Positions 13,285-59,167 are shown, numbered from the stretch's first letter. The stretch is 64,000 nt of DNA from Nitrospirota bacterium (GCA_049325335.1 JBMOMC010000007.1:64001-128000); one strand, 5' to 3'. The notes: generated from the letters alone by a model not told the origin. Numbers and translations are program-made.

Positions 13285-14067
13285 CTAGAGCGCCGTCCGT
13301 CGAAACGCCAGGAGTTTGTATCCGGTGACGAAACAGGCGGCGCGAAGCCGTTTCACAAACAACGTCCACCGCCGTGTCGGCGCATGGTGTTGGGCCGCGA
13401 GATAATTCTCGTCAAACTGACGTTCATAGTTCGCCCCACTTTTGCTGGTGTCATACCAACGAAAACACGCCAGGCGATCCGGCAGGTACAATGGATCGCT
13501 GACTTTGCCGAATCGCAACCACAATTCGTAGTCAAACGCCAGAGGAAACCGGGGATCGAGCAGGCCGACCCCGTCAAAAAGCGACCGGCGCCAGAACACG
13601 GTCATCTGGCTGATAAAGTTCTCCCGGAGCAACCGCGAATACGAATACCGCGCGGCGCACCAATGTTTGTAGGCGCTGACCACGTGCCGGATGACGCGAT
13701 CGTGCTCGTCGATGATATCGCAACGTCCGTGCAACCACTGGAGGTTGTGATCGCGGTCAAACGCGTCTTTCACCCGCGCCAACGCGCCGGGCCGCAGCAG
13801 ATCGTCGCTGTTGACCCAACCCACGATGTCGCCGGTGGCGAGCCGGAAGCCTCGGTTGATCGCGTCGATCTGGCCGTGATCGCGCGCGCTGCTCCAGCGG
13901 ATGCGGCCGTCGTATGTGCGGAGAATCTCGAGGGTCTCGTCGGTGCTTCCGCCGTCGAGCACCAAATACTCCAACTCAAAATCGCCACGCTGGCCGAGGA
14001 TGCTCTCGATCGTGCGTTCGATGAATCGCCCTTGGTTGAACGAGGGAGTGATGATCGAAATCTTCAC
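13285..14067 (-). CDS. Glycosyltransferase family 2 (WcaE-like)
   Basis: KISIITPSFNQG, DGGSTD, AINRGF, WVNSDD and AFDYELWLR motifs. GTG start at 14067 overlaps the upstream stop. Confidence 0.9.
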   Translation of the reverse strand: MKISIITPSFNQGRFIERTIESILGQRGDFELEYLVLDGGSTDETLEILRTYDGRIRWSSARDHGQIDAINRGFRLATGDIVGWVNSDDLLRPGALARVKDAFDRDHNLQWLHGRCDIIDEHDRVIRHVVSAYKHWCAARYSYSRLLRENFISQMTVFWRRSLFDGVGLLDPRFPLAFDYELWLRFGKVSDPLYLPDRLACFRWYDTSKSGANYERQFDENYLAAQHHAPTRRWTLFVKRLRAACFVTGYKLLAFRRTAL

Positions 14068-15431
14068 GGCGCGCCCTTGACCGACCGGCGCGTCGAGACG
14101 GTCGTGCACAGAATGAACGCGACCCACAACGCGGCCAACGGCGCGACATGCAGAATCAACCGGTGCAACAGCGTGTGATCGAACAAAAACTTCGTCATCG
14201 ATTCCTTGGTCACGAACAGCCACACCAGCACGGCAAAATAGATGACGACCGGCCAAGACAAAAAGATATGCTCCGCCTGAACCGTCGAGCGCAAGCGCAA
14301 TAGAAACACCACAAAGAACACCGTCCACACCAGCATCCAGTTGCCGCTCATAAACAACGATTGCCCGAACGCGGCGGCAACCGGCCAGACCCGATCAACG
14401 CTACCGGCAAGCGGGGCCAGGTTCGACACCAACGCCGTTTCGAACCCGGCGCGAGGCCGCACCGCCGCCCAGGCGGCCCATACCGCGGCGGCCGGACCCA
14501 GATACACCAGGCGCTCCTTCACCGACACCTTCATCACCGTGAGCAACAACGCATTGGCGATGATGAAGACCGGGCCATCCACTCTGGTCAACACCGCGCC
14601 CACGCCAAACAGCGCGGCCACGAACAGCCCGTGTCGACGATGCGTGCAGAGAAAGTGCGTCAGCGCCACGCTCTGCCCCAGCACAAAATACGCGAGCGGG
14701 AGGTCGGTGTACGGTTCGTGACTGTGTTGAACGGTCAGGGGGATGGCGCCGACAAACAGCGCGCCGAATACCGCGAGGCCCGGCGAAAACCGTTCCCGCA
14801 AGGCTCCGTATGCCATGAGACCCATGGCCGGGAAATATCCCCACACCGCGAGTTTGATCGCGGTTTCGCTCCAGGATCCGGAGAGCAAGACCGCCCAGAC
14901 CTGTTGCAGCGGGGGTCCCAACGGATAATCCGGGGTGTTGACGGTCCCTAAGAGATTGAGCGGAATCATGCCGGTCGCGTAAATCATCTTGGCTTTCACG
15001 GCATAGACGTACCACGCGTCCCATGCCGTGATGGGCCGAACCCAGGCTCGCAGCAGGGTCAGCAGGGTCAGCGCCGAGCCGATCCCGATGCCGACGATGC
15101 CCCCGATACCGAGTCCGGCCCAGAACGTCTCGCGCCGACCCTGCGTTCCAACCGGCGCCGTCACACGGAACGGAACGCTCGTGAACCCCGCCCATCGTCC
15201 GATCACCCACCCCACCACAGCGGACGCGACCACGGCCAGCGCAACCGAGATCAGGGAGAGCGGTAGTCCGAGAAGGCCCATGCCACCCATGACCAGCATG
15301 ACCCACACCGTGCCGATGCCGTACGCCATCCCACATCGCGCGGCGGGATGAAAGGACCCCAGCCACGGCGTGACCAGGAACCCAAGACCCCACAGGCTGA
15401 CGAGGCCGAACACCGCCATCACCGACGTCAC
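14064..15431 (-). CDS. GT-C fold membrane glycosyltransferase (ArnT/PMT-like)
   Basis: More than 10 hydrophobic segments, with WDAWYVYAVKAK...DYPLGPP, YTDLPLA and TRVDG motifs. GTG start at 15431. Confidence 0.7.
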   Translation of the reverse strand: MTSVMAVFGLVSLWGLGFLVTPWLGSFHPAARCGMAYGIGTVWVMLVMGGMGLLGLPLSLISVALAVVASAVVGWVIGRWAGFTSVPFRVTAPVGTQGRRETFWAGLGIGGIVGIGIGSALTLLTLLRAWVRPITAWDAWYVYAVKAKMIYATGMIPLNLLGTVNTPDYPLGPPLQQVWAVLLSGSWSETAIKLAVWGYFPAMGLMAYGALRERFSPGLAVFGALFVGAIPLTVQHSHEPYTDLPLAYFVLGQSVALTHFLCTHRRHGLFVAALFGVGAVLTRVDGPVFIIANALLLTVMKVSVKERLVYLGPAAAVWAAWAAVRPRAGFETALVSNLAPLAGSVDRVWPVAAAFGQSLFMSGNWMLVWTVFFVVFLLRLRSTVQAEHIFLSWPVVIYFAVLVWLFVTKESMTKFLFDHTLLHRLILHVAPLAALWVAFILCTTVSTRRSVKGAP

Positions 15432-16567
15432 GTCGCGCGTACCCGAAAGAGGCAAAATCGTTCAGCCTCTCTCACGAGAACCAGATCGGATTCCAGCGTG
15501 CCGCACGGCGCGTGGGCGCCGGCGAAATAGTGCAGCCGGAGCGTGGCGTCGCTGAGCACGAGCGGAACCGGCGCCAAATAATAGCCGGCGCGTCCACGCC
15601 AGTATTGGCCCAGGGAATCCGCCTCGTGGACAATCAGTTCGATGGAATCGCGCGCCGTCGCCATCGCGGCCACGTCGCGCATATCCCGTGAGAGGGGTGC
15701 GCCGTCCATGGTGTGATACGCCTCATCTGCGCTAAGCCCCCAGAACCGCTGTACGTCGATGCCGAGGGCCACCGACTGATGGTAGATCAGAAAACCCACC
15801 CCAAGCCCCCAGATCGCCATCAGGCCTTGCGCGGCTCTCGTACGAATCGCCACCCGCCACCCCGCCGTGCCGCGCAGCCCGAACACCACGATCGCCAATA
15901 CGACGATCGCGAAAAACAGCCAGTGCCAGAGCGATCGGCCGCGAATCGACGGCGGCTCCACGAAATTGATCGAGGAGCCCGCGAGGGCGAGGCTGACCCC
16001 TGGGTTGGGCGATACCGCTTCCCCCAGCAAAGACGCCACGGACACCGCGACGAACCGGACCGACCCCACCGCGACGGGCTGCGGAACGAGCGACGGGATG
16101 AGAACCGCTTCCCGCACAACGCCCAGCGGCAACCCGGATAAGTCCAGGTCCAACGTTTCCATGGTTTCGCCACGGGTCGTGAACCGGAGCGACAGTCGCT
16201 TCGTCCCCCCGCCGGTGTCCACCACCAAGCCGAGCAGTCCCTCCGAGGCGCGTTCCGTGCGCAACGACACGGTGAGCCGTCGATAGTCCCGAAGGTCGAG
16301 CGACAGGGGACCGCTCCGCAAGATGGGAGGGTCTTTCCGCGGGGTCAGACCGATCCCATTCGCCAGGAGAGTCACCTCGGCGTTGGGCGACGTCCACGTC
16401 GTCGCCTGTCCGCCTGAAAACTCCCACCGATCCTGCCCCATCCGCGCGGAATCGAACTGACATCCGCCGAGCAGCCATCCCATCCCCGCCACGACGAGCA
16501 CGAGACCGTTGCGCCATCGCGGATCGCCCATCCCCGATTGTTTCCTCACGCGCCGCCCCATCCCCAT
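15428..16567 (-). CDS. Hypothetical membrane protein, possible lipoprotein, with a periplasmic beta-rich domain
   Basis: LLGGC lipobox-like sequence, a beta-rich domain, then two TM helices. Tightly coupled to both neighbours. Confidence 0.55.
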   Translation of the reverse strand: MGMGRRVRKQSGMGDPRWRNGLVLVVAGMGWLLGGCQFDSARMGQDRWEFSGGQATTWTSPNAEVTLLANGIGLTPRKDPPILRSGPLSLDLRDYRRLTVSLRTERASEGLLGLVVDTGGGTKRLSLRFTTRGETMETLDLDLSGLPLGVVREAVLIPSLVPQPVAVGSVRFVAVSVASLLGEAVSPNPGVSLALAGSSINFVEPPSIRGRSLWHWLFFAIVVLAIVVFGLRGTAGWRVAIRTRAAQGLMAIWGLGVGFLIYHQSVALGIDVQRFWGLSADEAYHTMDGAPLSRDMRDVAAMATARDSIELIVHEADSLGQYWRGRAGYYLAPVPLVLSDATLRLHYFAGAHAPCGTLESDLVLVREAERFCLFRVRAT

Positions 16568-16570
16568 ACG

Positions 16571-17506
16571 TTATTTCGGGGTCGCTTGAATATCGAGGAT
16601 AATCGCCTGGAGCATCAGCTCAAAGCCGATCAAAAAGGGGAGCACGCCCAACATCACGGTCCCGGTCGTCGCGATCTCGCCGAAGACCCACGACCGCCAC
16701 CACGTGTACGCGCCGAAACCGGCGCCCCAGACCAACAGCGGCAAGCCCAACAGGAGAAACAGCGCCACCGGCGAAAAATCCCGCAACACGTACTTCTGAT
16801 AAATCCGGTACCAGAATCGACGAAACAGGTACGGGGGGAACGACCCCAGCACGCGCGAGACTTTCAGATTGGACACTTCGTCCCCGTAGATCGCGGGAAT
16901 CGCCACGTCCTTCACGCGGAATCCCAAAATATTAAGATGGATGAGGAGATCGTTTTCAAAGAAAAACCGCCGAGCCAGACGAGCCAGATCCAGTTGCGCC
17001 AACGCCTCGCGACGAATCGCGAGATAGCCGTTTTGAGGATCGAACACGTTCCAATACCCCGAGGTCAACTTGGTTAGAAAGGTCAACACAAAGTTGCCGA
17101 ACAGCCGGTGCCGAGGCATGGCGGAGAGTTCGGCCGAGTGCAAAAACCGATTGCCCTTCGCGTAATCATAGCCTTGGATCGTGACGGCATCGAGGAGCGC
17201 CGGCAGATGCCCGGGGTCCATCTGCCCGTCGCCGTCCATCTTGACCACCACTTTCACGCCGTCTTCGAGCGCCCGGCGAAAACCCGTGATAGTCGCGCCT
17301 CCGACGCCTTCATTGACCTCGTGGCGGAGCACCGTCACGCGGTCCGACGCGACGCTGCGCGCCGTGGCGAACGTCTCATCCCGGCTCGCGTCGTCCACGA
17401 CGAACACACGGTCGACCCACTCGGGCATCCCCTCGATCACCTTCCGGACCGAGCGCGCCACGTTGTAGGCCGGAATCACGACGCCTATGGTGCGACCGCG
17501 ATACAT
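16571..17506 (-). CDS. GT2, DPM1-like polyprenyl-phosphate sugar synthase with two C-terminal TM helices
   Basis: VVIPAYN, VDDASRD, VKMDGDGQMDP, GNRF and DPQNGY motifs. Confidence 0.85.
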   Translation of the reverse strand: MYRGRTIGVVIPAYNVARSVRKVIEGMPEWVDRVFVVDDASRDETFATARSVASDRVTVLRHEVNEGVGGATITGFRRALEDGVKVVVKMDGDGQMDPGHLPALLDAVTIQGYDYAKGNRFLHSAELSAMPRHRLFGNFVLTFLTKLTSGYWNVFDPQNGYLAIRREALAQLDLARLARRFFFENDLLIHLNILGFRVKDVAIPAIYGDEVSNLKVSRVLGSFPPYLFRRFWYRIYQKYVLRDFSPVALFLLLGLPLLVWGAGFGAYTWWRSWVFGEIATTGTVMLGVLPFLIGFELMLQAIILDIQATPK

Positions 17507-17605
17507 CCTGTCACCCCGTGACGACCGCCGCGGTCTGCCCCGCGATGAACCATGGCCTCACCGCGCGCCGGATCTCGCGCCGAACAACCGCCTCGCGCGT
17601 CGCCC

Positions 17606-17977
17606 TCATGGTGAAACCGATTTGGCGTCGTGATCGCTCAGTTGTTTGAGCTCCGTTTTCAGGATCGCCAATTCCTGGGACACGTCCTTGACCCGATCAT
17701 AGAGACCGGACAGCTTGGTGGAATAATACAGGTTGATAATGATGAGGAACAGCAAACCGAAGAAAAAGAGCGTCGACGTCGGCAACACGCCCCCGATCAA
17801 CTCCGTGAGGGACACCAGCAGGCGGTACCAGCTCGCGAGCACGATAATCACGACGCCCGTCAATAACCACAACCACGAATACTCCTCTCTGAGCATTCGT
17901 CTCCGCACAAGATCGACGATCAAGACAAACAGGAGAAGGCTGATGCTGATGGCGACAATTTTCTGCTGAATCGGCAT
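17606..17977 (-). CDS. DUF2304-like small membrane protein (partner of DPM1-like GT2)
   Basis: Three TM helices, LREEYSWLW and a coiled tail DVSQELAIL. Lies directly after a DPM1-like GT2. Confidence 0.8.
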   Translation of the reverse strand: MPIQQKIVAISISLLLFVLIVDLVRRRMLREEYSWLWLLTGVVIIVLASWYRLLVSLTELIGGVLPTSTLFFFGLLFLIIINLYYSTKLSGLYDRVKDVSQELAILKTELKQLSDHDAKSVSP

Positions 17978-17994
17978 GGAACGTCTCTCCCTTG

Positions 17995-18801
17995 TTATGT
18001 ATCAACGCGCCGGACAAACCGGTCGTTTCGCAGCAACGTGACGAAGATGGACAAGAACATCTTGAACAGATAGTACACCGGCTTCAACCCGCTGTGCATC
18101 GACTCGCCGACCATTCTGGCGTGCATGGTGACCGGTATTTCCCGAATCCGTAACCCCGCCTTGTGCAGCATGATGATGACATCCGCGTCCGGGTAATCCA
18201 CGGGATAATACGGACTCGCGTAAAAACGCAGGGCGTCCCGATTCAAGGCCTGAAAGCCCGACGTCGGATCCGTTGATCTCTGCCCGGTGATGATCGACAC
18301 CACCTTCCGAAACACGTAAATTCCGGCCCGCCGCGACAACGCAGCCTCATACCGCGGGCTGTCGGCCAAAAACCGCGATCCGATCACCACATCCACGTCG
18401 CCTTTTCGAATTTCATCGAGCAAGGCTTGGATCGAAGCCGGATCATGTTGTCCATCCGCATCCATCTGGACCACATATTGATACCGCTTCATCAAGGCGA
18501 ACTTAAACCCGGTCTGGACCGCGGCCCCATACCCCATGTTAAACGGCAGCTTCGCGACCAGGGCGCCCGCTTTCTCCGCCGCCCGAGCGGTTCGGTCTCT
18601 CGATCCGTCATCCACGATGAGAATATCGACTCCGGGCGCCTTCGACCGGATCTGGTCCACCGTCGTGGGAATATTGCGCTCTTCATTAAACGCCGGAATG
18701 ACGATCAGCACCTTCCCCTGGTCAACGCGCGCGGAACGTTCGAGCGTCACGTCACGACCCGGGATATCGGCGCGGTACGCCGGCGACCGCGGATTGATCA
18801 T
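17995..18801 (-). CDS. GT2, DPM1-like polyprenyl-phosphate glycosyltransferase
   Basis: IPAFNEE, VDDGSRD, NMGYGAAVQTG, QMDADGQHDP, GSRF and TDPTSGF motifs. Confidence 0.9.
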   Translation of the reverse strand: MINPRSPAYRADIPGRDVTLERSARVDQGKVLIVIPAFNEERNIPTTVDQIRSKAPGVDILIVDDGSRDRTARAAEKAGALVAKLPFNMGYGAAVQTGFKFALMKRYQYVVQMDADGQHDPASIQALLDEIRKGDVDVVIGSRFLADSPRYEAALSRRAGIYVFRKVVSIITGQRSTDPTSGFQALNRDALRFYASPYYPVDYPDADVIIMLHKAGLRIREIPVTMHARMVGESMHSGLKPVYYLFKMFLSIFVTLLRNDRFVRRVDT

Positions 18802-18817
18802 CCGTCACCTCCATCAT

Positions 18818-19852
18818 TCATTCCCGTAGGACGACGTCGCGCATGGTAACGCCATGGTCGCGCAACCAGCGATGGACCTCTTCGCGCGCGATCCGCCCCG
18901 ACCGATCGCGGCGGCGGGCGCGCCACATGGCGGGCGCACCGCGGAGCGCCGCCAGGTAGGCTCGGCCGACCATCCGGACGAGCGCCCACGGCGAGGAGGT
19001 CTTCACGGCGCGCCCTGCGGCCCCTTGCCCACTCACGGCCGCGTAGGTCTGCCAGATCAGCCGCGCGATCGTCCAGAGGGGCGAGAGAGCCAGCGCCGAC
19101 CACGGGAACGATTTTACCATCACCCACACGCGGTTCCGCTCCACCAGAAACACTTTCCGCAGCGAATATTTTCCCGCAGACAGCGAATACCGGTGGCGCA
19201 CCACCGCATCCGGCGCATACCGGCACCGCCAGCCCGCCAGTCGCGCCCGCAGCCCCAGATCGATGTCTTCGCAGTACATAAAAAATCGTTCGTCGAACGT
19301 CCCGATCTCCGCCAGCATCGCGCGGCGGTACAATGCCGCGCACCCGCTGGGCACCAACACCTCTTCCGAACGATCGAATCGACCGTCGTCGCGTTCGAGC
19401 CGGCCCCGCCCCCGTCCCAGTCCGTCCCGGGCGAGCAGCAGTCCCGCGCTGTCGATCACCGTGGGATCATCGTGGGAGATGATTTTCGAGGCGCACATCC
19501 CCACGCGCACATCGCGCTCCGCTTCGCAGACCAGCGCCGCCACCCAACCGGAGTCGGCGGTCGCGTCGTTGTTGATCAGCGCCACGTAGTCGCCCGAGGC
19601 CTCGGCCATGCCGTCGTTGTTTCCGCCTGCGAAACCTCGGTTCTCCCGATTGACGATCACCCGAATCTTCCCGCCGTATCGCTCGCGCAGAAGCGGCACC
19701 GAGCCGTCCGTGGACCCGTTGTCCACCACAAGAATCTCCAGCCGCGGATAGGTCTGGGCCAACAACGAATCCACGCATTCCGACACGTAAGATTCGCCGT
19801 TCCAATTCACGACGATCACCGACACACGCGGCGGACCGGAGGCGGTCGTCAC
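18818..19852 (-). CDS. GT2 (WbbL/rhamnosyltransferase-like)
   Basis: VIVVNWNG, NRGFAGGNN, LINNDA and FDERFFMYCEDIDLGLR motifs. Confidence 0.88.
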   Translation of the reverse strand: MTTASGPPRVSVIVVNWNGESYVSECVDSLLAQTYPRLEILVVDNGSTDGSVPLLRERYGGKIRVIVNRENRGFAGGNNDGMAEASGDYVALINNDATADSGWVAALVCEAERDVRVGMCASKIISHDDPTVIDSAGLLLARDGLGRGRGRLERDDGRFDRSEEVLVPSGCAALYRRAMLAEIGTFDERFFMYCEDIDLGLRARLAGWRCRYAPDAVVRHRYSLSAGKYSLRKVFLVERNRVWVMVKSFPWSALALSPLWTIARLIWQTYAAVSGQGAAGRAVKTSSPWALVRMVGRAYLAALRGAPAMWRARRRDRSGRIAREEVHRWLRDHGVTMRDVVLRE

Positions 19853-21981
19853 GACCCGCGCCCCTCGCTCGAGGCTCCGGACGGAACGCCGCCCATGTAC
19901 GCCTCCGCGTACCGGCGGGCCGACGCGTACGCGGGCGTCTCGGGCGCGTCGCGAAGAAACGCGCCGTAGGCAAGCCGCGCGTCATCGGACTTGCCCTCCC
20001 GCTCGTACAGCCGACCCAAATTAAAGTGCGCTTGAAAAAACGACGGCGCGCGCGCCAGGAGATCCCGGTACGCGGCCTTGGCCTCGGGAAGATTCCCCCT
20101 CGCCAGCAAGACGTTGGCCCGGTTGTACCGCGCGTCGTGTAGGTCGGGATGAATCGTGAGCGCCTCATCGTAGGCCGCCAGCGCCTGCTCCGGACGGCCC
20201 GCGCGTTCGGCCAGAAACCCCAACCCCAACCAGGCTTGGGCCGACAACAACGACGGCCTCCCGCGCTCCTGCGCCAGCACGGCCTGGTACTGCTCCGCCG
20301 CCTCGCGCGAGCGGCCGATGTGTCCAAACGCCTCGGCAACCCGCAACCGGGCGTCGGGACGGTGCCGTCCGCGGTCAAGCGCTCCAACCGCCCGTTCAAG
20401 CGTATGGGCGGCCAGCGCGGGTTCGCCCAACGCCTCATAGGTTGAAGCCAATGCCGTGAGCAAATCACTGGCATCCGGTGCTAATGCGACGGCCCGTTCG
20501 AACATCACGCGAGCCGCAGCGTAGTCCGATCGGGCCACATACACCAACCCCGCATTGTGGTACGGCAACGCGTACTCCGGCGACAGTCGGATCGCCTCAC
20601 GATAGGCCTCCAGCGCGCGCGCGTCATCGCCCCGCACCGCGTACTCGACGCCCAAGTTCAGCCGAGCGACCGGATGGCCCGGGGACTTTTCCACGGTATC
20701 GCTCCACAGCCGCAGCGCGTCGGTCCACACCATGTTCCGCGTCCACGTGGCCGTCGCCAACACCGCGGTCACGACCAGTCCGCCGGTCACGATCGCGCGT
20801 CGAAGCCCGTGGCTCCGCCCCAGGCGATCGAATGCCGCGGCGGCACACCCGGCCGCGCCGGCCAACCCCATCCAGGCCAAGTAATCGCGATGTTCTTGAA
20901 ACCGGATATGGAATGGATACCCCATGATCGGCACTAACGCCGCGACGAACCACAGGAGGCAGAATGCCGCCGGTCGACGATCGTCGGATGACGTCCGCAG
21001 CCACCGCACGGCCGTTGCGCACATCGCGAGCAGTACGGCCAGTCCGAGTACCGCCGTCGGCCGCCACGGAACGGTCACGGTCGGCACGTGGTATAGAACA
21101 TTGAGATCGAACGGCCACGCAAACACCGTCACGTGCTTCGGGAACACGGCCAGTTGCGTCCACAGATTCTCCCAGACGCCCAACGCGTCGCTCGGCGCGC
21201 CGGCGATCACGTTCCAGATCGCGCGATGAGCATTGGTCGCGACCACGTACGCGGCGGCCAGCGTCGCGACGATCCCATACGGCGCGAGCCACGTTCTCCA
21301 CCCCAGCGCGCGCGACCACCCCGCGTCGTAACACAGCCAGATCAGCGGGACCACGACCGCGACCTCCTTGCTCCCAAGCCCGAGTCCTAGCGCGACGACG
21401 GCCGCCGCGCCGGCGGTCATGGCGGCGACGGGACGCGCCGACGACTGCGCCAGCCGCATGAGGATAAAGGCGCCCACGGACGCAGCGCCCCACAGCCCCA
21501 CCAGCAGGGACGATCGCGCCGCAAGGTAATTCACCGCCTCACTATTGGCCGGGGTCACGGCGAACAGCGCGCCGGCCGCGATCGCGGGCAGGGCCCGACG
21601 CGCGATCAACCATACCACGCCCATCAAGACCGCGACCGCGGTCCAGTGAAACAACACGTTCAACACGTGAAACCCGAACGGGTCAATTCCGCCGAGTCGG
21701 ACATTCCACGCATAGGTGAGGAACGTGATCGGACGATAGTGCCCGACCCCGATGGTCGCCGCCCGCGACCCAAACCACGACCAATCCACCTCGGCAGTCT
21801 GTAACTGGGGGTTCTCGACGATGGTGTGCCGATCATCGAATTGAAACGGTCCGTGCAACGAGTTCCCGTATAACGCGATGATCAGCGGCAAGAGGAGAAC
21901 CGCCGCGAACAGCACCCGGCGCCGCTCCGCTCGGTGTTCTGGTGATCCGTTGTCGGCGACCACGCCCTGGAACGGTGTCAT
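19849..21981 (-). CDS. TMTC-like GT-C protein O-glycosyltransferase with C-terminal TPRs (copy 8)
   Basis: FQFDDRHTIVENP, YRP, EAVNYLAARSS, SKE and QEHRDYL motifs, then TPRs. ATG at 21981 overlaps the upstream stop. Confidence 0.85.
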   Translation of the reverse strand: MTPFQGVVADNGSPEHRAERRRVLFAAVLLLPLIIALYGNSLHGPFQFDDRHTIVENPQLQTAEVDWSWFGSRAATIGVGHYRPITFLTYAWNVRLGGIDPFGFHVLNVLFHWTAVAVLMGVVWLIARRALPAIAAGALFAVTPANSEAVNYLAARSSLLVGLWGAASVGAFILMRLAQSSARPVAAMTAGAAAVVALGLGLGSKEVAVVVPLIWLCYDAGWSRALGWRTWLAPYGIVATLAAAYVVATNAHRAIWNVIAGAPSDALGVWENLWTQLAVFPKHVTVFAWPFDLNVLYHVPTVTVPWRPTAVLGLAVLLAMCATAVRWLRTSSDDRRPAAFCLLWFVAALVPIMGYPFHIRFQEHRDYLAWMGLAGAAGCAAAAFDRLGRSHGLRRAIVTGGLVVTAVLATATWTRNMVWTDALRLWSDTVEKSPGHPVARLNLGVEYAVRGDDARALEAYREAIRLSPEYALPYHNAGLVYVARSDYAAARVMFERAVALAPDASDLLTALASTYEALGEPALAAHTLERAVGALDRGRHRPDARLRVAEAFGHIGRSREAAEQYQAVLAQERGRPSLLSAQAWLGLGFLAERAGRPEQALAAYDEALTIHPDLHDARYNRANVLLARGNLPEAKAAYRDLLARAPSFFQAHFNLGRLYEREGKSDDARLAYGAFLRDAPETPAYASARRYAEAYMGGVPSGASSEGRGS

Positions 21982-41927: not shown

Positions 41928-41940
41928 CGAACGGACCACC

Positions 41941-43416
41941 CTAAAAGCTATATTGCAATTCGGAATAAACGCGCGAATGGTTCGTAAAAAACCCCACGAA
42001 ATGAAACTGACCTGGCAACGGCTCCTCCCCCGGTTTGGCGTCGGAAATGGCCCCATGCAACAGGTCCGCGCCGACGCTGAGTTTGACGCGTTGCGTCAGC
42101 CCGTACTCCATACGCGGTCGCACCAACCACTCCCGGTCGTTGCGAAACAAGAGCACCAAGGCCTGCACCACCAACCGATCGTGCAGGAGCCCCTTGCGCA
42201 CGAACGCGCCGTAGACCGTATCGACCTGGTCCTGGATCATGTTGGGCTCCCAGTCCGGAATGCGGTGTTGCAACACCTGCGCCGACCATTCCGCGCCCAA
42301 CAATGTGCCGTCCACACCCACTGCGTATTTGAGATAGTCTTTCTGCACCTCGCCCAACTGAAGGACGTTCGTCCCGTCCGTCCTGGTGAACCGACTGAGA
42401 ATGGTGCCGAAGAGTTTGTCCTGAACCCAGGCCGCCTCGGCATTGAGAATGAGGCGCCCGAGCGCGGTGGACACCGTGGCCCCGAAAATCTCCAGCCGCC
42501 CCACCCGCGGTTTGAAGGTCACCTCGGTCCTGTTGTTGAACTGACTGGGGCTCTCCACCGTCCGGAACGCAATGGGAAAGTCGTCCCAGGTGGAGAAGTA
42601 ACTGGCGGACAGATCCCACCCGCCGATCAACCGGGAGAGCTTGAGCGCCCATTCGCTATTGTGGACCGTTTGCGCGGGGCGTTTCATCCCCGGAAGGAAC
42701 CGAAACTGTTCAAATTCGCTCTCCCGCGCGGCCGGCTCGTGGGTGCGAAGGTCAGGAATCCACAGACCTTCCAAGGTTGTCTCCCCCATGTACAGGTCGG
42801 CTTTGAGCATCCACAGGGGAATGTAGCGGTCATTGACCTCCCGCAAAATGAATTCGTGGAAATCGAGCGGATTGATCTCGTCCGTGACCCGCGCGCCCTC
42901 GACCACGCCCCACCGAACGATCTGCCGCCCCGCGCGAATGTCCAGGACGCGAAAGTGCACATCCAAGTAGAACTCGCGGAGCTCGGCCCCGGTTTTACGG
43001 ATCTCCACGTTGCGGATATTGTCGATCGTGACCGCGTTGACCTCTGGGCCGGTGTCGATTTCGGACGTGAGGATGGATTCCGGGCCCTTGCGCGGGCTGA
43101 TGGTATCGATGTCGACCAAATCATACGCCGCGTCGTAGTACCCCCGCACCCGCGCGGAGAGCTGCGCGCGCGGACCAAACGTATACCGCGGCTCGAGATT
43201 GACGATGTTGAGCACCTTGACCAAACCGGCGGGTTGGTTGAGGCGCCAAGCGGTTTCGTTGCGCAGATATCCGTTCAGCGTCAGGTGTTCCCGCCACCCG
43301 GGAGACGACGGCGTGTCCCCCGTATCTTGGCTCCACGCCGGTGCGGCGGACACCAGTAGCCCGGCGACCATCACTGCCGCGGCCAGGCGGATCATCCTGC
43401 CCATCGAACGCGTCAC
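41941..43416 (-). CDS. DUF1302-like outer-membrane beta-barrel protein
   Basis: Signal peptide, ELREFYLD, IRAGRQIVRWG, DEINPLDF and C-terminal ELQYSF (Bam signal). Confidence 0.75.
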   Translation of the reverse strand: MTRSMGRMIRLAAAVMVAGLLVSAAPAWSQDTGDTPSSPGWREHLTLNGYLRNETAWRLNQPAGLVKVLNIVNLEPRYTFGPRAQLSARVRGYYDAAYDLVDIDTISPRKGPESILTSEIDTGPEVNAVTIDNIRNVEIRKTGAELREFYLDVHFRVLDIRAGRQIVRWGVVEGARVTDEINPLDFHEFILREVNDRYIPLWMLKADLYMGETTLEGLWIPDLRTHEPAARESEFEQFRFLPGMKRPAQTVHNSEWALKLSRLIGGWDLSASYFSTWDDFPIAFRTVESPSQFNNRTEVTFKPRVGRLEIFGATVSTALGRLILNAEAAWVQDKLFGTILSRFTRTDGTNVLQLGEVQKDYLKYAVGVDGTLLGAEWSAQVLQHRIPDWEPNMIQDQVDTVYGAFVRKGLLHDRLVVQALVLLFRNDREWLVRPRMEYGLTQRVKLSVGADLLHGAISDAKPGEEPLPGQFHFVGFFTNHSRVYSELQYSF

Positions 43417-43417
43417 G

Positions 43418-46400
43418 TCAGAAGGTCTTGCTGACCGACAGGGACGAGGTGTACTTGCGGTAAGGGCCGGTCGCCTGAGCCAGGTTATTCCGCAGTTCGT
43501 CGATATCTTCGGTGCGGTTGAGAGAAAAACTCGAATCGTTCTGCGTCAAATGCGCTCCGAACGAGATCACCAGGTCGCTGCGAAACGTGTAACTGAGATC
43601 CACCCCGTAGCTCTTGGACACGCTCTGAAGAAACACCAGGGTCTCAATCGTGGTGTCGCCGCGCACCGTAGACCTGCGCGTCGGGTTGACGTAGTCGGTG
43701 AACCCTAGACTGTAGGTGAGACTCAGTCCCATCCCAGCCCACAGTTGTCGGCTGAAGCTCACGGCCAGACCTTTCGATTGGCTGACCTGGTCGGCGCGGT
43801 TGGCATCGTTCGTCGACCCGGAAAAACTCCCGCCCACGCTCCCGGAGGCGCCCAGGGACTGCGACAGGGACAGGGAGTAGCCCGTACTCGCGTTTCTCGC
43901 GGTGCTGGCGCCCAGCCCGATCGACGTGTTATAGGAGAGCCCAATCGTCAGACTGGACGGCAACTGCCCGCGTCTAGTCCATGACGCGCCGAGTGATTGG
44001 CCCAGCGACGCCGGTCCATCACTCCCATGGCCGTACGACCACCCGAGGGATCCGCCCACCTCCATGATCGGACTCAGTATGTACTCACCCGAGGTCGACA
44101 GCGCCATACTGACGGACGCGCCCTGCTGATAGACCAACGACGACGATTCCGACAGGGTGAGCCCGCTCCGGAGCCGGACCTGCTCCTCGTTGATCAACGT
44201 GTACGTCATGGTCCCGCCAACGCTACTGGAGACCTCGCTGATGGGATCGGTCTCGCTCGACGCCAAATTCGAGTCATAGCTCCACGGCGTGGCGCGTAAG
44301 GTTAGGCGATAGGGTCTGAGCCGTTGCTCCAGCGTGGCAATGGCGTCTTCCGCGCTCCGGCGGAGGTCCACCGCCTCTTTTTCGGTTCGGTTCGCCAGCA
44401 GCTCCCGCACCTTTCGGTAGTGACGCAACGACAAGGCCATCCGGCGCTGCTCTCCGTAATAAAACGCGAGGTTCCAGTGGACGATGGGGGTGGACGTCCC
44501 GTTCGCCAACTCCACGTTGCGTTCAAACGCCGCGAGCGCGTCGTCGAAGCGTTCGAGGTGCACGAGTACGGTGCCGATCGACGCATATGGAAGCGGCGTA
44601 TTCGGCGCCAACTCCGCGGCCTTGCGGTACGCAGCCAAGGCTTCCTCCCAGCGCTTTTGCTGCTCGAACAGAAACCCCAATTGCAGCGACGGTTTGGCGG
44701 ACTGAGGATTGACCGCGGCCGCCCGCTCCAGCGCTTCCTGAGCCCGGCCGTATTCTTGGAAGTCGGTCAGAATCGCGCCCACGTTGAGGTACGGTTGGTA
44801 ATCGTAGGGGAACCGCTGCGAAGAGGCCATAAACGCATTCAACGCGTCGACGAACCGGCCTTGTGCGCCGAGGACCCCGCCCACCGTGAGCCACCCTTGC
44901 CCCTCCTCAAACCGCCCCAGATAGTCCACCGCGTCCGCACGGCGTTTGTAGGCTTCCTCGAGGAACCACGCGCCTTCTCCGTTGGTGATCGCCAAATCGA
45001 ACCGTCCGACTGCGGCGCGGTATTCAGCCTGCGCTTCCGGCAAGCTGCGGGCATCCCGCGCCTGTTCCGCGCTGTTCTGGAACAACACGCCCAACCAAAA
45101 GTGCGCCAGGCCGTAGGTTGGTAAGACCTCCAGAACGCGCTCGAACGCCCGGGCGGCCACCACCGTGTTCCCGAGGTTAAACGCGGCCAACCCGCGGTTA
45201 AACGCGTAGTACGGATTGCCTTCGTCCAGCGCCGCGGCGCGGGTAAACCCCCGGTACGCGGCCTCATAGTCCAGGCGCTGAAACGCCTCCGCGCCCTCGC
45301 TGAATGATCGGCGCGCTTCCACGGCGAGGCCGCTCTTGAGGGTGTAGACTTTTTCGCGGGCTTCTTCGAGCGCCGGCAATCGACGCCGCGCTTCCACCCC
45401 CTCGCGCACGGGCCCCCGCAACTCCACGACCCGCTGATAGTGCTGGATCGCCTCGTCGAACAACCCCTGCCCGGCTTCGATCTCCGCCAATAAGAACCAC
45501 GCGGGGTAAAAGTCGGGGTCGCCCTCCAACCCTCGCTTGAGCATTCCCATCGCTTCAACGGTCCGGCCGCGTTTGGCCACGATCAACCCAAGCGCCAAGT
45601 TGGCGGGAGCCTGCGTGGGCACCACCGAGACCACGCGCTCAAACAGGCGTTGCGCCTCGTCCACGCGTCCGGACCGGATGGCCTCTTCAGCCGCGCGCAT
45701 CCAGGCGCGCACCTCCACGGCCTGTTCCGGCGTTGCCCCAAGCTGAGACAACCGTCGTTCCGCAAAACGCACGTCCGGGTGGTCCGCCCGCGTCTGGGCC
45801 GCGGCGCGATACGCGGCGACCGCGTCGCCATGACGTTCGGTGCGCTCCAAGAGCCGGCCCAGATTGACCTGCGCGGGGAAAAACGAGGGCTCAACCCCGA
45901 CGGCCGTCCGCCACCGCGCCTCCGCGTCTTCCTCGCGCCCAGCGCGCTCGGCCAAATTCCCGAGGAGCAACAGGGTCTGCAAATGTTTGGGCACCCGCTC
46001 GATGACCGACAGCAACTCGGCTTCCGCGGCCGCGGTCTCCCCGGCGGACAGGGCGCGCGCCCCAGCCAGAAACGCACGTTCAGCCGCCCGGTAGGTCTCG
46101 GCATCGGGGCCGAGTTGATCCAACCGCGAGGCGGCGCGGCGCGCGGAGTCGGAGTCCGGAGCCAGGTCTATGACCCGCCGGTACGCGGGGATGGCATCAA
46201 CCGCGCGGCGTCCGGCCTCGTACGCGCGGCCTAACGCCAACCATGCGGTCGGGTCGTCTGGAAACGCGTCCACCGCGGCGCGCAAGCGGTCGATCGCCTC
46301 CGGCGTCAAGCCCTGCTGCAGCAATGTCATCCCCTCTTGCACCGCCTCCTGCGCCGTCCCTAATTGCGACCACGCGGGGACGGGCACACCAGCCAGGATC

Positions 46401-46456
46401 ACCCAGACCGCAACCATAGGGGCGCACAGCCGTGCGCCCCTACCCCTGATGACCAT
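43418..46456 (-). CDS. Secreted multi-TPR protein with C-terminal outer-membrane beta-barrel (Slam/BcsC-like architecture)
   Basis: Signal peptide (PAWS/Q), about 700 aa of TPRs, then SYDSNL and alternating Ser/Thr-hydrophobic strands ending SLSVSKTF. Confidence 0.75.
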   Translation of the reverse strand: MVIRGRGARLCAPMVAVWVILAGVPVPAWSQLGTAQEAVQEGMTLLQQGLTPEAIDRLRAAVDAFPDDPTAWLALGRAYEAGRRAVDAIPAYRRVIDLAPDSDSARRAASRLDQLGPDAETYRAAERAFLAGARALSAGETAAAEAELLSVIERVPKHLQTLLLLGNLAERAGREEDAEARWRTAVGVEPSFFPAQVNLGRLLERTERHGDAVAAYRAAAQTRADHPDVRFAERRLSQLGATPEQAVEVRAWMRAAEEAIRSGRVDEAQRLFERVVSVVPTQAPANLALGLIVAKRGRTVEAMGMLKRGLEGDPDFYPAWFLLAEIEAGQGLFDEAIQHYQRVVELRGPVREGVEARRRLPALEEAREKVYTLKSGLAVEARRSFSEGAEAFQRLDYEAAYRGFTRAAALDEGNPYYAFNRGLAAFNLGNTVVAARAFERVLEVLPTYGLAHFWLGVLFQNSAEQARDARSLPEAQAEYRAAVGRFDLAITNGEGAWFLEEAYKRRADAVDYLGRFEEGQGWLTVGGVLGAQGRFVDALNAFMASSQRFPYDYQPYLNVGAILTDFQEYGRAQEALERAAAVNPQSAKPSLQLGFLFEQQKRWEEALAAYRKAAELAPNTPLPYASIGTVLVHLERFDDALAAFERNVELANGTSTPIVHWNLAFYYGEQRRMALSLRHYRKVRELLANRTEKEAVDLRRSAEDAIATLEQRLRPYRLTLRATPWSYDSNLASSETDPISEVSSSVGGTMTYTLINEEQVRLRSGLTLSESSSLVYQQGASVSMALSTSGEYILSPIMEVGGSLGWSYGHGSDGPASLGQSLGASWTRRGQLPSSLTIGLSYNTSIGLGASTARNASTGYSLSLSQSLGASGSVGGSFSGSTNDANRADQVSQSKGLAVSFSRQLWAGMGLSLTYSLGFTDYVNPTRRSTVRGDTTIETLVFLQSVSKSYGVDLSYTFRSDLVISFGAHLTQNDSSFSLNRTEDIDELRNNLAQATGPYRKYTSSLSVSKTF

Positions 46457-46610
46457 GGCCTCCCATCCGCATCCACCGCCCCCACAGAGTGACCCCCACG
46501 GTTACCGCTTCATTCCCTTAACCGCTCGGAAAAACTGGGGATTTGACGCCAACCACAGGAAGGTACCACAGGGGGGCCGACCACACCAGGTGCGCGGGGC
46601 GGTGCCATGC

Positions 46611-46644
46611 AAAAAAAAGGGGAAGCCCATTGCTGGGCTTCCCC
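46611..46644 (-). terminator. Rho-independent terminator after the large secreted protein
   Basis: Minus strand GGGGAAGCCC-AGCAAT-GGGCTTCCCC followed by T8. Confidence 0.92.
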
Positions 46645-46672
46645 TGTACTGCGTACTACACCTACCGGGTGC

Positions 46673-48631
46673 TTACGGGAGCTGAGTAACCGAGAGTCCC
46701 CCGTTGACAGGCGGATGACCGACCTCATCGAAGTCGGGGAACGCCGGCCAGTTGATGTTGAACGTAATCGACACACCCGTCGAGGGCGGTGCCACGTGCG
46801 GCGAACAGTTCAAGCAAGACATCAGGTAGCTGCTGTTCGTCGGATCATCGTCGCGTTGCTCGACGAGTTGGTTCAACCCGAAGTTGGCAGCAGTTGCCCC
46901 GCCGTTCTCGCTCGCGCCCAAGAAGCTGAACGCATGCCCGTTCGTCTCACGGATCCACCCGCGGAGACCGTTTTCAATGGCCTCTTTGTAGTAGATCGTC
47001 CCGTCATCCGCGCTTCCGTAGAAGCCGTCGGCTCCGGGATCTGACACACAGGAGTTCCAGTAGTACGTGACCCCGCTCACCACCACCGGGGTGCCGAACA
47101 GCGTCGCGCTGTCCGTACATGCCACGTACACGCCGGCGCTCTGATACGGATCGCCGGCCACACGCGCCGGGTTCAGGTCGTTCCCGAAGCGTTTCAACAC
47201 GCTGTCGGCAAGCCCACCGGGGTTGTTGGAGTTGTACACCATGGCCATGGTCACGCCATTGGCGTCAAGTGTCGTCGACACCACGGCGTCGATGGCTCCG
47301 CCTTCGGCCGGATCTCCGCACATGTCTTCGCCGTAGTTATGACCACGGTCCCCACAGATCACCCACGAATACGGGTCCGCGCCTTCTTCCGAGTGTACGT
47401 TCGGCCCGCTGTACACGCGGAACTGGCTGATGATTTGCTGCTCAAAGCCCGTGTTCGGGGTTTGCGGAGCGCCGGTGATTTCATCCGGCGCTTCACCACC
47501 CAAGTATTGGGCCAGGCGGTCGTCGATCACGGACGGCAGTTTTTCCAGATCCGTCAACGTCTTGGTCACCAGGACTGTACCGCCGTTGTTCAACGCCCCA
47601 ATGGTGTCGAGTTTGGTCACCTGGGTGATCTCCAACGCCGTGGCGTCTTCCGCCGCGTTGTCGCTGCCGACGCCGCCGGTGTTGCCGTTGGCGCCTTTGA
47701 TCACGTACAGGTGGAGGTCCTCGTAGTCATTGGGCGTCCCACCATCGATGATGTAGAATTCACACCATCCCGAACCACCACACCCATCGGAATTGTTCTG
47801 GGTGAGGCTGCTGCCGTCCTGATCCAGCGCAAAGTGCCCGTCCAAGTTGCTCATCGCGCGCCACCGAATCACGGTGTGATTGCGCGCAAAGCTCATGGAC
47901 GACCGGATGCTCTGGTTAAACGCCGAGGCATCCAACGCCGGAACCGTGACGGCGTCGCCGCCGCCGGCCGTGTATTTGACCATCAGGTTGTCGACCCAGG
48001 CGGCCCGTTCGTGCGGCCAGTACCGGGGGAACTTCCCAGTGGTCAACGGCTCGCCATGGGCGTCCGTCATTTCCAAAATTCCGTTCAACGCGCCCTGGAA
48101 CGACGAGTTGGCCAAGGCCAACCCAACGTCCCCGCCGGGGCCCGCGGTGCCGACTTCAGGGAAGAACGGGAACCGCTGCGCCAACGGCGCAAACCCGCTC
48201 AACCACTGCCCGCCCGAAAACGAGGGCTGCATCAGCATACGATACCCGGTCCGGTGATGGTCGCCGGACGGCGGAATAAACGGGGTGCCAAACCGCGGAT
48301 CATAGTACAAGCCAGTGGTCCAGGCCGTGAGTGAGGCCGCGCCCCAGTTCCCACAGTCGCCGGCGCCCAGGCTCAGCCCCGCGTTATTGATAAGCGCGTT
48401 ACACGGCCGAATCGTGCCGATGTAGGGGACGTGGATCAACGTCGTCGTCCCCGCAATGCCGGCCGTTTGTCCGGCCGTCAGGAACACGGGGATCAACCGC
48501 CCGCTCCCAGCCGCGCCGGTACCGACTGTTTCGTTGATGGTGAAGAGGTTGGATGCCGACGCGGGCGACGCAAGAACCGCGAGCCCGAGGGCAGCCAGAC
48601 CCAACACCATAGATTTGCTGTGTCTGATCAT
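46673..48631 (-). CDS. Secreted Gly/Thr/Asp-rich protein of unknown function (candidate surface or structural protein)
   Basis: AGGAAAGG RBS before MIRHSK at 48631, with an alternative in-frame start at 48700. Sec signal ...ASPASA/SN. Ten Cys, DPGADGFYGSADD motif and C-terminal CLNCSPH. Confidence 0.75.
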   Translation of the reverse strand: MIRHSKSMVLGLAALGLAVLASPASASNLFTINETVGTGAAGSGRLIPVFLTAGQTAGIAGTTTLIHVPYIGTIRPCNALINNAGLSLGAGDCGNWGAASLTAWTTGLYYDPRFGTPFIPPSGDHHRTGYRMLMQPSFSGGQWLSGFAPLAQRFPFFPEVGTAGPGGDVGLALANSSFQGALNGILEMTDAHGEPLTTGKFPRYWPHERAAWVDNLMVKYTAGGGDAVTVPALDASAFNQSIRSSMSFARNHTVIRWRAMSNLDGHFALDQDGSSLTQNNSDGCGGSGWCEFYIIDGGTPNDYEDLHLYVIKGANGNTGGVGSDNAAEDATALEITQVTKLDTIGALNNGGTVLVTKTLTDLEKLPSVIDDRLAQYLGGEAPDEITGAPQTPNTGFEQQIISQFRVYSGPNVHSEEGADPYSWVICGDRGHNYGEDMCGDPAEGGAIDAVVSTTLDANGVTMAMVYNSNNPGGLADSVLKRFGNDLNPARVAGDPYQSAGVYVACTDSATLFGTPVVVSGVTYYWNSCVSDPGADGFYGSADDGTIYYKEAIENGLRGWIRETNGHAFSFLGASENGGATAANFGLNQLVEQRDDDPTNSSYLMSCLNCSPHVAPPSTGVSITFNINWPAFPDFDEVGHPPVNGGLSVTQLP

Positions 48632-48802
48632 CGTCTGTACCTTTCCTGATTGAGCCTCTTCCCCCCATGGGAAGAGGTTATACCTAAGTTGCTTCCGCAT
48701 GTCTCATCACCCCCTTTCCTGCGATAGAGTCGCGGGGCTCACGCCCCGGTTGAAGCCATGGTTGAGAACAACACGTTCAACGGTTCAGTTGATCCGTTGG
48801 TA

Positions 48803-49546
48803 TCAACACTGATGCGCCGGACCGATCAGGGTCAGGCCATCCGGACGGCCGTCATTGTTGGCGTCGGTGAGATCGCCGTTAAACGTAAACGTCCCTCCGC
48901 ACGTGGACAAGACCCCGTCTTCCCGCAACGACTGGGTGTAACTACCTTGACTCGCGATCGGGTTACCGTCCGCGTCCGTCAGCGACCGTACGCTGAAACT
49001 CATATCGAACACCTGTCCCTTCTCCGCCACATTCTGCGAAAATTTATATTCGATTTGTGTGCACCGAGTGGTGGGGGCCGACGGCCCCACCGCGGCGCAC
49101 GCGCTGGTTTCCGTGCTGAGACGAGACAGCAACCCGCTGTCCATGGTCTGGAAGGCGCCCGCTAATTCATTGACCCGACTCGTGGTCAGCGGCGAGCAGG
49201 ACGTAATGGAAAACGGCGGCTCGGTCGCGCCGCCGCGGTCGCAGTTTTGGATCACATCCACGCTGCTGCTGCCCTGGGGCACCCCACACCCGAATTGGCT
49301 GCTCGCACACGCGCCCAAGGCACTGGGGGCGAAGGGATTGGACGTGTCCGGGAACGGATCAGACGGCCCAGTGATCGCAGTCGGATCAAAGCCGCGAAGT
49401 TGGGCCATATTCGCATTGGCGACGTTGCTCAGATTCAAGGTGAAGGCATTTTGACCGAACGCCGTCGAGTTCCACCCCGAGATGAGGCTCCCGATCACCA
49501 CCAATCCTCCGATGACAGCACGGCGGTATCCCGACCACCTCCGCAC
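48803..49546 (-). CDS. Secreted Cys-rich protein of unknown function (start uncertain)
   Basis: Signal-like VRRWSGYRRAVIGGLVVIGSLISGWNSTAFG/Q, eight Cys including the last residue, and a DANNDGRPDG Ca-binding-like motif. The 5' extension in the ORF track is AT-rich promoter DNA. Confidence 0.65.
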   Translation of the reverse strand: MRRWSGYRRAVIGGLVVIGSLISGWNSTAFGQNAFTLNLSNVANANMAQLRGFDPTAITGPSDPFPDTSNPFAPSALGACASSQFGCGVPQGSSSVDVIQNCDRGGATEPPFSITSCSPLTTSRVNELAGAFQTMDSGLLSRLSTETSACAAVGPSAPTTRCTQIEYKFSQNVAEKGQVFDMSFSVRSLTDADGNPIASQGSYTQSLREDGVLSTCGGTFTFNGDLTDANNDGRPDGLTLIGPAHQC

Positions 49547-49561
49547 CGGCGGATATCCTAA

Positions 49562-49577
49562 TGCAACGTATAGGCCA
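49562..49577 (-). promoter_or_regulatory. Putative sigma54 (-24/-12) promoter
   Basis: Minus strand TGGCCT-ATACG-TTGCA with exact GG-N10-GC spacing, at the end of an AT-rich stretch upstream of the two secreted genes. Confidence 0.6.
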
Positions 49578-59162: not shown

Positions 59163-59167
59163 CGCAC

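Follow-up and report, generated by a model that had tools for sequence, protein, structure and literature searches.

The window analysed here is a 64,000-nucleotide stretch of DNA from a Nitrospirota bacterium (GCA_049325335.1, JBMOMC010000007.1:64001-128000). It contains a locus reaching upstream to about 63300 that comparative genomics separates into three modules: an upstream block (module A), a core cassette (module B) and an array of genes resembling the animal TMTC glycosyltransferases (module C). The conserved unit is module B, a proposed outer-membrane export-and-assembly cassette, and not the glycosyltransferases. An original prediction had described part of the locus as a self-contained line for glycosylating and exporting surface proteins, and the genes on which it drew are real. 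Scans of open reading frames (ORFs), Pfam and NCBIfam recover the two secreted proteins, a barrel protein with tetratricopeptide repeats (TPRs), a DUF1302 barrel, an FG-GAP lipoprotein, eight TMTC-like genes, four family 2 glycosyltransferases (GT2s), a DUF2304 protein, a protein like the C-fold glycosyltransferases (GT-C) and the nucleotide-sugar genes, all co-oriented on the minus strand and mostly coupled (Table 1). Between the TPR barrel and the GT2 at 18818, intergenic gaps are of 16 bases or fewer or the genes overlap, mostly by 4 bases; several gene starts give products shorter than the longest ORF. The prediction had overlooked the upstream half, from the small barrel up to the moa genes, as well as a membrane protein without assigned family among the downstream glycosyltransferases. 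Genomes are cited below by handle, the window's own genome being G000, and families by code; frequencies within the class refer to a set of 251 genomes.

The order of module B is small barrel, S2, S1 (the two secreted proteins), terminator, TPR barrel, DUF1302 barrel and FG-GAP lipoprotein, and it recurs in f1, f4, f6, f7, f8, f12 and f23, some of them with inserted or missing genes; in f27 the small barrel, a secreted protein and the TPR barrel are retained, with S2 relocated upstream. The secreted proteins, barrels and lipoprotein form a deeply conserved cassette, whose occurrence extends over six families of the class and into other classes. Homologues with a source name are labelled Nitrospirota or Nitrospiria, the S2 set adding an unclassified bacterium, a vent metagenome and one Nitrospira label. 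Orthologues of the DUF1302 barrel are present in 33 of the class genomes, corresponding to the families with S2 plus f9. The FG-GAP lipoprotein has full-length counterparts in other genomes; because the repeat alone matched the full-length query in 39 of 41 genomes, only rows covering the N-terminal part were used.

Structural comparison suggests that the TPR barrel resembles the translocon of the Slam/type XI secretion system (T11SS). ESM Atlas features match Slam/DUF560 at 0.94, predicted structures at TM scores of 0.78-0.84, and two structure rows reach the naming bar for PF04575; no direct match to PF04575 was obtained, nor did the barrel alone yield one by hmmscan at E 1. In f7, single ORFs of 1581-1606 aa unite the TPR barrel, the small barrel and the DUF1302 barrel, a fusion that was tested in G012, the other f7 ORFs being assigned by length and DUF1302 match. 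The small barrel of the window aligns to residues 817-1098 of the 1585-aa G012 fusion with 34% identity (E 8e-49). Fusion ORFs of this kind, about 1580-1610 aa long, were noted at L093:12754-17508 (G012) and in G032, G057, G059 and G061.

S2, with 75 homologues, is carried by 29 of the class genomes (f1 4/6, f4 1/1, f6 5/5, f7 8/15, f8 1/2, f12 9/9) and by two further families of the phylum (f23 6/7, f27 5/11). Its model is a six-strand open beta-meander, with strands at residues 103-206 at a predicted local distance difference test score (pLDDT) near or above 90, preceded by an N-terminal arm that is conserved but unfolded in the model. As in the original prediction, neither secreted protein could be assigned to a family: S1 and S2 are both without a Pfam, NCBIfam or PDB sequence match. 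Foldseek searches of PDB and viral structures with S2 returned no match, and the best hits by VIA, segments of outer-membrane barrels (Z 7.9, root mean square deviation 4.2, 112 residues aligned), lie at background level. Three f12 loci (L146, L147, L151) hold extra S2-like paralogues next to large secreted proteins, away from the cassette.

S1 has 68 close homologues (54 representatives at the 50% level) and is predicted to form long antiparallel strands (215-248, 367-408 and 587-607) that are separated by insertions. Homologues as short as 310-400 aa retain the strands and lack the insertions (profile Prob 100, or 99.7 minus the N-terminal 28 residues). Foldseek found no match to the S1 model at E 0.001, the best VIA hit having a Z of 7.5 and the best ESM Atlas hit scoring 0.78; judged by their models, S1 and S2 appear to be two secreted families without structural match. 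The S1 C-terminus is a CxxC..H..H module, with a terminal CxxC in 106 of 128 family hits, many of the remainder being fragments, and at least two histidines after it in 95. The last 60-85 profile positions also end two unrelated proteins, namely P0101, a lipoprotein with four Big_5 domains (E 3e-16), and P0105, a beta-helix fragment (E 3e-11); the module is therefore portable and caps unrelated passenger domains.

The S1 family itself occurs in 11 of the class genomes; in another class, four f23 loci match its profile (E 5e-36 to 1e-55). Its slot in the cassette always holds a secreted Gly/Thr/Gln-rich protein, the sequence of which is replaced between families, as expected for an exposed structural protein; the Cys/His module is absent from the slot proteins of f6, f7 and f12. 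Directly after the slot, 17 of 20 loci have a hairpin (-18 kcal/mol or stronger) with a T run behind it, the exceptions being G037, G071 and G091; the sequences have diverged, and the count has no shuffle control. This layout is suggestive of a bulk subunit encoded ahead of its machinery; codon statistics were uninformative. Elsewhere in G000 there is a second S1-family paralogue (C40:6503-8176, L002). A GT-C gene of the PMT type follows the S1 paralogue in G000 and G003, two of the six such loci, and no TMTC gene was found in the flanking DNA fetched for the solo paralogues. In G014 (L085, C3:2676-25214) two secreted proteins and a 5611-aa ORF come after a short S1 homologue that has no barrel genes next to it.

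Table 1. Features of the locus, in window coordinates from upstream to downstream
Feature	Position	Strand	Basis
MoaA (module A), single copy	62265..63308	+	Pfam
MoaE	61706..62164	+	Pfam
MoaC, head of module A	60428..60955	-	Pfam; conserved position
ABC (ATP-binding cassette) exporter, ATPase and ABC-2 permease (module A)	58392..60424	-	Pfam
Histidine phosphatase (module A)	57680..58390	-	Pfam
Small ferritin-like protein, 113 aa, His-rich ends, conserved Cys2 (module A)	57296..57637	-	EncB family E 2e-9, under cut-off
Secreted probable barrel, N-terminal CxxCH	55785..57170	-	Motif scan; no Pfam or PDB sequence match
O-methyltransferase, S-adenosylmethionine (SAM)-dependent (module A)	54585..55652	-	Pfam
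LolA-like/DUF1329 periplasmic protein (module A)	53758..54564	-	PF17131 E 4e-45, PF07044 E 4e-10
MMPL/RND transporter (module A)	51099..53597	-	Pfam, NCBIfam
Small probable outer-membrane barrel, Pro/Thr/Glu-rich N-terminal linker (module B)	49750..51081	-	No Pfam match
S2, secreted; candidate minor subunit or nucleator; start maybe 49546 or 49498	48803..49633	-	75 homologues
S1, secreted, 652 aa; candidate major subunit	46673..48631	-	Signal peptide; 68 homologues
Intrinsic terminator, 12-bp stem and T run, between S1 and the barrel genes	46618..46645	-	Hairpin scan
TPR array with C-terminal Slam/DUF560-like barrel (module B)	43418..46456	-	Pfam TPRs; ESM Atlas
DUF1302 barrel (module B)	41941..43404	-	PF06980 E 3e-16
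Large FG-GAP lipoprotein, 1421 aa (module B)	37662..41927	-	Lipobox LAGC, lipid-anchor Cys at 41843
TMTC-like T1-T4 (35996-37645, 34173-35999, 32392-34176, 30500-32395; module C)	30500..37645	-	Motifs, tree
Membrane protein, 791 aa, spermidine-synthase-like SAM domain	28128..30503	-	NF037959 over cut-off
TMTC-like T5-T8 (25969-28152, 24107-25972, 21978-24110, 19849-21981; module C)	19849..28152	-	Motifs, tree
GT2, kept after the array in G001-G004	18818..19852	-	Pfam, synteny
PpgS/GacI-like GT2 and DUF2304 activator	17606..18801	-	NF058614 E 8e-30, under cut-off; PF10066 E 3e-21
DPM1/AglJ-like GT2, two C-terminal helices, kept after the array in G001-G004	16571..17506	-	NCBIfam, synteny
Membrane protein without assigned family	15428..16567	-	Variable glycan region
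PMT_2-like GT-C	14064..15419	-	PMT_2 E 2e-5, just under cut-off
GT2	13285..14067	-	Pfam; variable glycan region

All eight TMTC-like genes of module C encode a multi-pass membrane domain followed by a TPR array. The predicted run of eight is present but not continuous, as the gene for the 791-aa membrane protein with a SAM domain splits it into four and four; this gene also adjoins the cassette in f4, f6 and f27, the f4 copy (G009, L039:3670-7263) being fused to TPRs, and its product is possibly a glycan- or lipid-modifying transferase. Identity among the TMTC-like membrane domains is 26-62%, and the motifs DD, RP, R, KE, PxxP and QxxR are invariant, with D31 D32, R56 P57, K172 E173, P313, P318 and R330 unchanged in all eight. 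In the 39 rows linked to a cassette DD and KE are always kept, and the glutamate of M7 in 33. These motifs match the DD motif and M2, M4, M6 and M7 of human TMTC1-4 and follow the order published in PMC7801869; the HKS of M2 is not kept, only the R of RxD (M3) remains, and DW (M5) is lost, with D in 13 of the 39 linked rows and W mostly replaced by H or Y. PF08409 (TMTC_DUF1736) has no match in the own genome at E 0.1, nor by hmmscan, and PMT_2 is matched only by T2 (E 0.0014, under cut-off). A crude hydropathy count gives 4-7 segments against the 11 helices of GT-C, and no PDB sequence match was obtained.

The array by itself is not new, because the family is common and prokaryotic homologues have already been noted: full-length ones exist and are uncharacterised according to the part of PMC7801869 available. 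TMTC-like genes are found in 80 of the class genomes, with 17 in the own genome, eight in the array and nine elsewhere, and up to 20-21 in G014 and G034. In a FastTree phylogeny of 109 rows, of which three are truncated duplicates, the cassette-linked copies group by lineage with unlinked ones, with 16 changes between the two states of which at least 11 are forced, so that separate expansions in each lineage are indicated rather than one dedicated clade. Within the genus the array varies from six to eight genes with differing paralogues; T1, T4 and T8 pair one-to-one with G003 genes, and T2/T3 and T5-T7 vary, so that the predicted paralog-specific glycosylation could apply to at most three of the eight. 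Two unlinked copies in the own genome (G000:C43:132197-136417 and C7:3-3670) adjoin ORFs for multiheme cytochromes, and in G071 a region apart from the cassette (C1:2209047-2218983) has a second MMPL gene at a distance of about 5 kb from two TMTC-like genes that form a pair.

How closely the TMTC-like genes are tied to the cassette was assessed in 24 cassettes for which both the S1 slot and the downstream DNA were seen. This leaves out G021, G263 and G271 (contig ends), G061 (slot not fetched), and G258, G014 and a second G012 locus (no slot gene). In 11 of the 24 (G000-G005, G009, G287, G300, G282 and G296), TMTC-like genes are located within the cassette or immediately behind it, G005 being counted as linked across a contig break within the FG-GAP gene. 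Such linkage is seen in four families belonging to more than one class, as the original prediction would lead one to expect. The linked genes occupy three different positions, including inside the cassette (G004, G287, G300) and directly after the TPR barrel (G282, G296). No TMTC gene adjoins the other 13 (G011 twice, G019, G031, G036, G012, G032, G037, G059, G063, G071, G091 and G279); G036 has two copies 15-21 kb downstream and was counted as unlinked. Of cassettes with a true S1, 9 of 11 are linked. The linked share of a genome's TMTC genes reaches 3/4 in G287, 4/7 in G282, 5/8 in G296 and 4/9 in G009; for comparison, the stretches within 5 kb of an unlinked TMTC gene make up 2.9% of the own genome. 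As the genomes are related, these counts do not have the force of a statistical test. Among the genomes with S2, 20 of 29 carry TMTC genes and nine have none (eight of f7, and G063), and 60 genomes have TMTC genes without S2, G153 among them with a four-gene tandem and no cassette; any glycosylation is therefore optional and not integral. In f7, S2 is found in 8 of 15 genomes and TMTC in none of the 15. The claim that the system is self-contained is not supported by these figures, and the circumstance named in advance as counting against it, secreted-protein homologues occurring routinely without TMTC arrays, is in part what we see in f7, in the 13 unlinked cassettes and around the solo S1 paralogues.

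In f1, f4, f23 and f27 the cassette comes after module A with its MoaC, ABC exporter, phosphatase, methyltransferase, LolA-like protein and MMPL transporter; at the f4, f23 and f27 loci examined, this module contains a second DUF1302 gene of its own. In f12, MoaA, MMPL and the methyltransferase form a group at a large distance from module B (about 1.1 Mb in G079), which makes module A separable, and it is likewise unlinked in f7. The moaA gene remains next to the cassette in other lineages, where it takes three different positions; four f23 loci (L161, L165, L159, L158) have it between S2 and S1, and f4 and f6 just before S2. The own genome has moaA, moaC and moaE only at this locus, each in single copy; a dedicated second moa set was sought and not found, and the genomes also have MoeA and molybdopterin-family oxidoreductases. 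For the linkage of MoaA to the cassette, old gene order is the only account we can offer. The ferritin-like protein, a possible metal chaperone, retains its His-rich ends in f23 and f27. The CxxCH barrel, which we take from its motif to be Cyc2-like, is found at this place in f1, after the FG-GAP gene in G011, and not in the f23 and f27 loci; two further genes of this kind lie elsewhere in the own genome (C1, C6). Downstream of the array, the PpgS-like GT2, DUF2304, the membrane protein without family, the extra GT-C, the last GT2 and gmd/fcl are absent at this place in G001-G004, so that the block that the original prediction had counted as part of the system is not conserved here. By sequence, the PpgS/GacI-like GT2 with DUF2304 is probably a polyprenyl-phosphate-sugar synthase, and the DPM1/AglJ-like GT2 is the best candidate for the donor synthase.

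Taken together, we infer that the locus encodes an undescribed system for the export and assembly of an abundant surface polymer, to which periplasmic glycosylation has been added in particular lineages, and we put the probability of this at about one half, the cassette part of the reading being firmer than the glycosylation part. S2 and S1, which have signal peptides, would cross the inner membrane by Sec, with S1 probably made in excess over the machinery because the terminator separates it from the barrel genes. The TPR array of the Slam-like barrel would receive the subunits and pass them out, with the Slam-like, small and DUF1302 barrels, fused in f7, acting as one complex. Outside, the open beta-meanders may associate along their edges to build a sheet, filament or layer, in which S2 would be a minor subunit and the FG-GAP lipoprotein an anchor or adhesin, and the C-terminal strand pair with the CxxC/His module, portable as it is, may dock S1 and passengers into the structure. 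As an optional step before export, modelled by analogy with TMTC1-4 (PMC11292533, in the part available), the TMTC-like enzymes would add single sugars to Ser/Thr of the cassette products in the periplasm, drawing on a polyprenyl-phosphate sugar that the adjoining GT2 would supply. The most specific form of this proposal, in which a three-barrel translocon exports beta-meander subunits of a new fold into a surface filament or layer, the CxxC/His module recruits adhesins and the TMTCs glycosylate beta-strands, is tentative and somewhat doubtful.

Several observations weigh against an export-and-glycosylation system of this kind. The S1 model is of modest quality (pTM 0.60, pLDDT 61.5), and neither the S1 nor the S2 model contains the C-terminal 8-stranded barrel of cluster-1 T11SS cargo, which is also not among the top fold matches of either; cluster-3 T11SS loci are mostly without this barrel too, as far as the accessible part of 10.1101/2024.09.26.615229 describes them. 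Homology between S1 and S2 is not demonstrated, since a full-length Prob of 38 falls to 0.2 without the first 28 residues, and comparison of the slot proteins of f6, f7, f12 and f27 with S1 likewise did not demonstrate homology (best Prob 17.7, in f6). The FastTree phylogeny shows no single clade of cassette-linked TMTCs, and the TMTC-linked slot proteins are not enriched in Ser and Thr (14-16%, n=8, against 15-24% in the TMTC-free, n=12). As the lineages are related and the region keeps old gene order, adjacency overstates coupling. DUF1302 barrels with beta-propellers are known as partners of DUF1329 and RND proteins in small-molecule or envelope transport (10.1101/072470, in part), which offers an alternative for module B, and the polymer itself, together with the glycosylation and polymerisation of S1 and S2, is what we infer rather than observe.

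Were the array to serve the neighbouring surface-glycan region, or envelope glycosylation in general, its acceptors would lie elsewhere and its adjacency would reflect envelope clustering and old gene order. This would account for the many TMTC genes in genomes without S2, the further copies in G000, G014 and G034, the G153 tandem, the mixing of linked and unlinked copies by lineage, and the sugar-pathway genes that follow the locus in G000-G004, G009 and G258. It sits poorly with the three positions that TMTC genes take at different cassettes, with the location of most copies of G287, G282 and G296 at the cassette, and with the coupling by 4-base overlaps, and we consider it unlikely. The strict version originally predicted, a self-contained pathway with a fixed target for each TMTC paralogue and a glycan built by the downstream genes, is highly improbable. 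As a general statement it is largely refuted by f7, and the 13 cassettes without adjoining TMTC, the changing paralogues of the array and the absence at this place of the second GT2, DUF2304, GT-C and sugar block in G001-G004 argue in the same direction, although the run is co-oriented and tightly coupled, T1, T4 and T8 have their one-to-one partners, and the PpgS-like GT2 with DUF2304 is a known donor-synthase pair, acting in polysaccharide pathways (10.1101/180810, in part).

Modules A and B might instead move hydrophobic or small molecules, with S1 and S2 as an oligomeric conduit or binding proteins and perhaps a lipid-linked acceptor for the GT-C enzymes. MMPL, LolA-like/DUF1329, DUF1302 and propeller are all here, matching a four-gene module with shared fitness profiles (10.1101/072470, in part), the methyltransferase, phosphatase and ABC exporter travel along in f1, f4, f23 and f27, and the structural neighbours of S2 are outer-membrane barrel segments. 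We consider this account improbable, less likely than service to envelope glycosylation: those Z-scores are at background level, module A is far from B in f12 and has a second DUF1302 gene of its own in f4, f23 and f27, and the terminator and replaceable S1 slot fit a bulk subunit better. The least probable account makes the S1 polymer metal-binding or electron-carrying, its CxxC..H..H binding a metal or a cofactor derived from pterin-dithiolene that module A would synthesise and export, beside a Cyc2-like cytochrome-porin. Ordinary synthesis of the molybdenum cofactor explains the moa genes, which are single-copy and accompanied by MoeA and molybdopterin oxidoreductases; module A lies apart from the cassette in f7 and f12, the slot proteins of f6, f7 and f12 have no Cys/His module and the f23 and f27 loci no CxxCH barrel, and CxxC may be a plain disulfide. 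What speaks for it is the frequency of CxxC with following histidines at the S1 terminus, the position of moaA at S2 in f23, f4 and f6, and the presence of both a His-rich ferritin-like protein and a CxxCH barrel in the locus.

Curli (csg) and Fap loci have a layout comparable to the one proposed here, with a minor subunit, an abundant major subunit and an outer-membrane translocon, and strands rich in Gln, Asn and Gly. The present cassette differs from them in that it has no sequence or fold match, FapF appearing among the S2 fold hits only at a background Z of 6.0, and in that the S1 and S2 models are antiparallel meanders and not beta-solenoids; with respect to S-layers, the terminator after S1 is suggestive of abundance only. 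Individual parts of the locus resemble TMTC/GT105, Slam/T11SS and the DUF1302 module, strict membership being shown for none. Like animal TMTC1-4, which are protein O-mannosyltransferases (CAZy GT105), module C has several paralogues with a membrane domain followed by TPRs and with DD, RP, R, KE, PxxP and ExR in the published order (PMC7801869, in part), and the proposed acceptors of TMTC1-4 are beta-strand proteins; the genes here, however, are bacterial, do not keep DW, lack PF08409 and form a tandem array beside a candidate export cassette. The likeness to T11SS lies in a TPR region with a SlipAM-like C-terminal barrel and an adjoining candidate cargo gene, whereas the TPR region here is about 700 residues long, direct PF04575 matches are absent, the source lies outside the Proteobacteria, two further barrels are present (fused in f7), and S1 and S2 are predicted to be open sheets.

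DUF1302, DUF1329, propeller and RND proteins have been proposed to form a co-fit module exporting an envelope component (10.1101/072470; PMC13499233; both in part). All four gene types are in the locus (PF06980, PF07044/PF17131, FG-GAP, MMPL) but do not remain linked in every genome, the MMPL block being far from B in f12; the propeller is an FG-GAP lipoprotein of about 1400 aa, and the DUF1302 gene of module B stays with S2, S1 and the TPR barrel where MMPL lies elsewhere. The GT2, DUF2304 and GT-C at 14064-18801 recall the three-part glycosylation systems PpgS/Rv3632 and GacI/GacJ/GacL (10.1101/180810, in part), although the known cases modify polysaccharide and the block, genome-specific at this place, may not serve the TMTC array.

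Full-text searches of the open literature, leaving aside subscription journals and supplements, found no description of the cassette or of a tested bacterial TMTC, and the accessible parts of PMC3110197, PMC9040806 and PMC11033732 do not mention the cassette. No acceptor of a bacterial TMTC was found in print in that literature, and the locus, by naming candidates, provides a concrete lead, with natural controls in the form of close cassette counterparts that have eight, three, one or no TMTC genes. Module B is of interest independently of glycosylation, as a conserved outer-membrane machine with a natural three-barrel fusion. If the proposed export-and-assembly system is correct, Slam-like export would extend beyond the Proteobacteria, the DUF1302 barrel would be suggested to act in protein and not small-molecule traffic, and the cell surface of groundwater and marine Nitrospirota, never imaged, would have been described; if the TMTCs do glycosylate its beta-strands, the cassette would also give bacterial TMTCs their first natural substrate and cadherin-type O-glycosylation a precedent in bacteria.

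Beyond the last GT2, positions 1-13225 of the window hold a nucleotide-sugar and O-antigen-like cluster with Gmd, Fcl, an epimerase, a nucleotidyltransferase, a radical SAM/SPASM protein, DegT, GNAT, NeuB, WbqC, a cytidylyltransferase, a deacetylase, an acyltransferase and a probable flippase.

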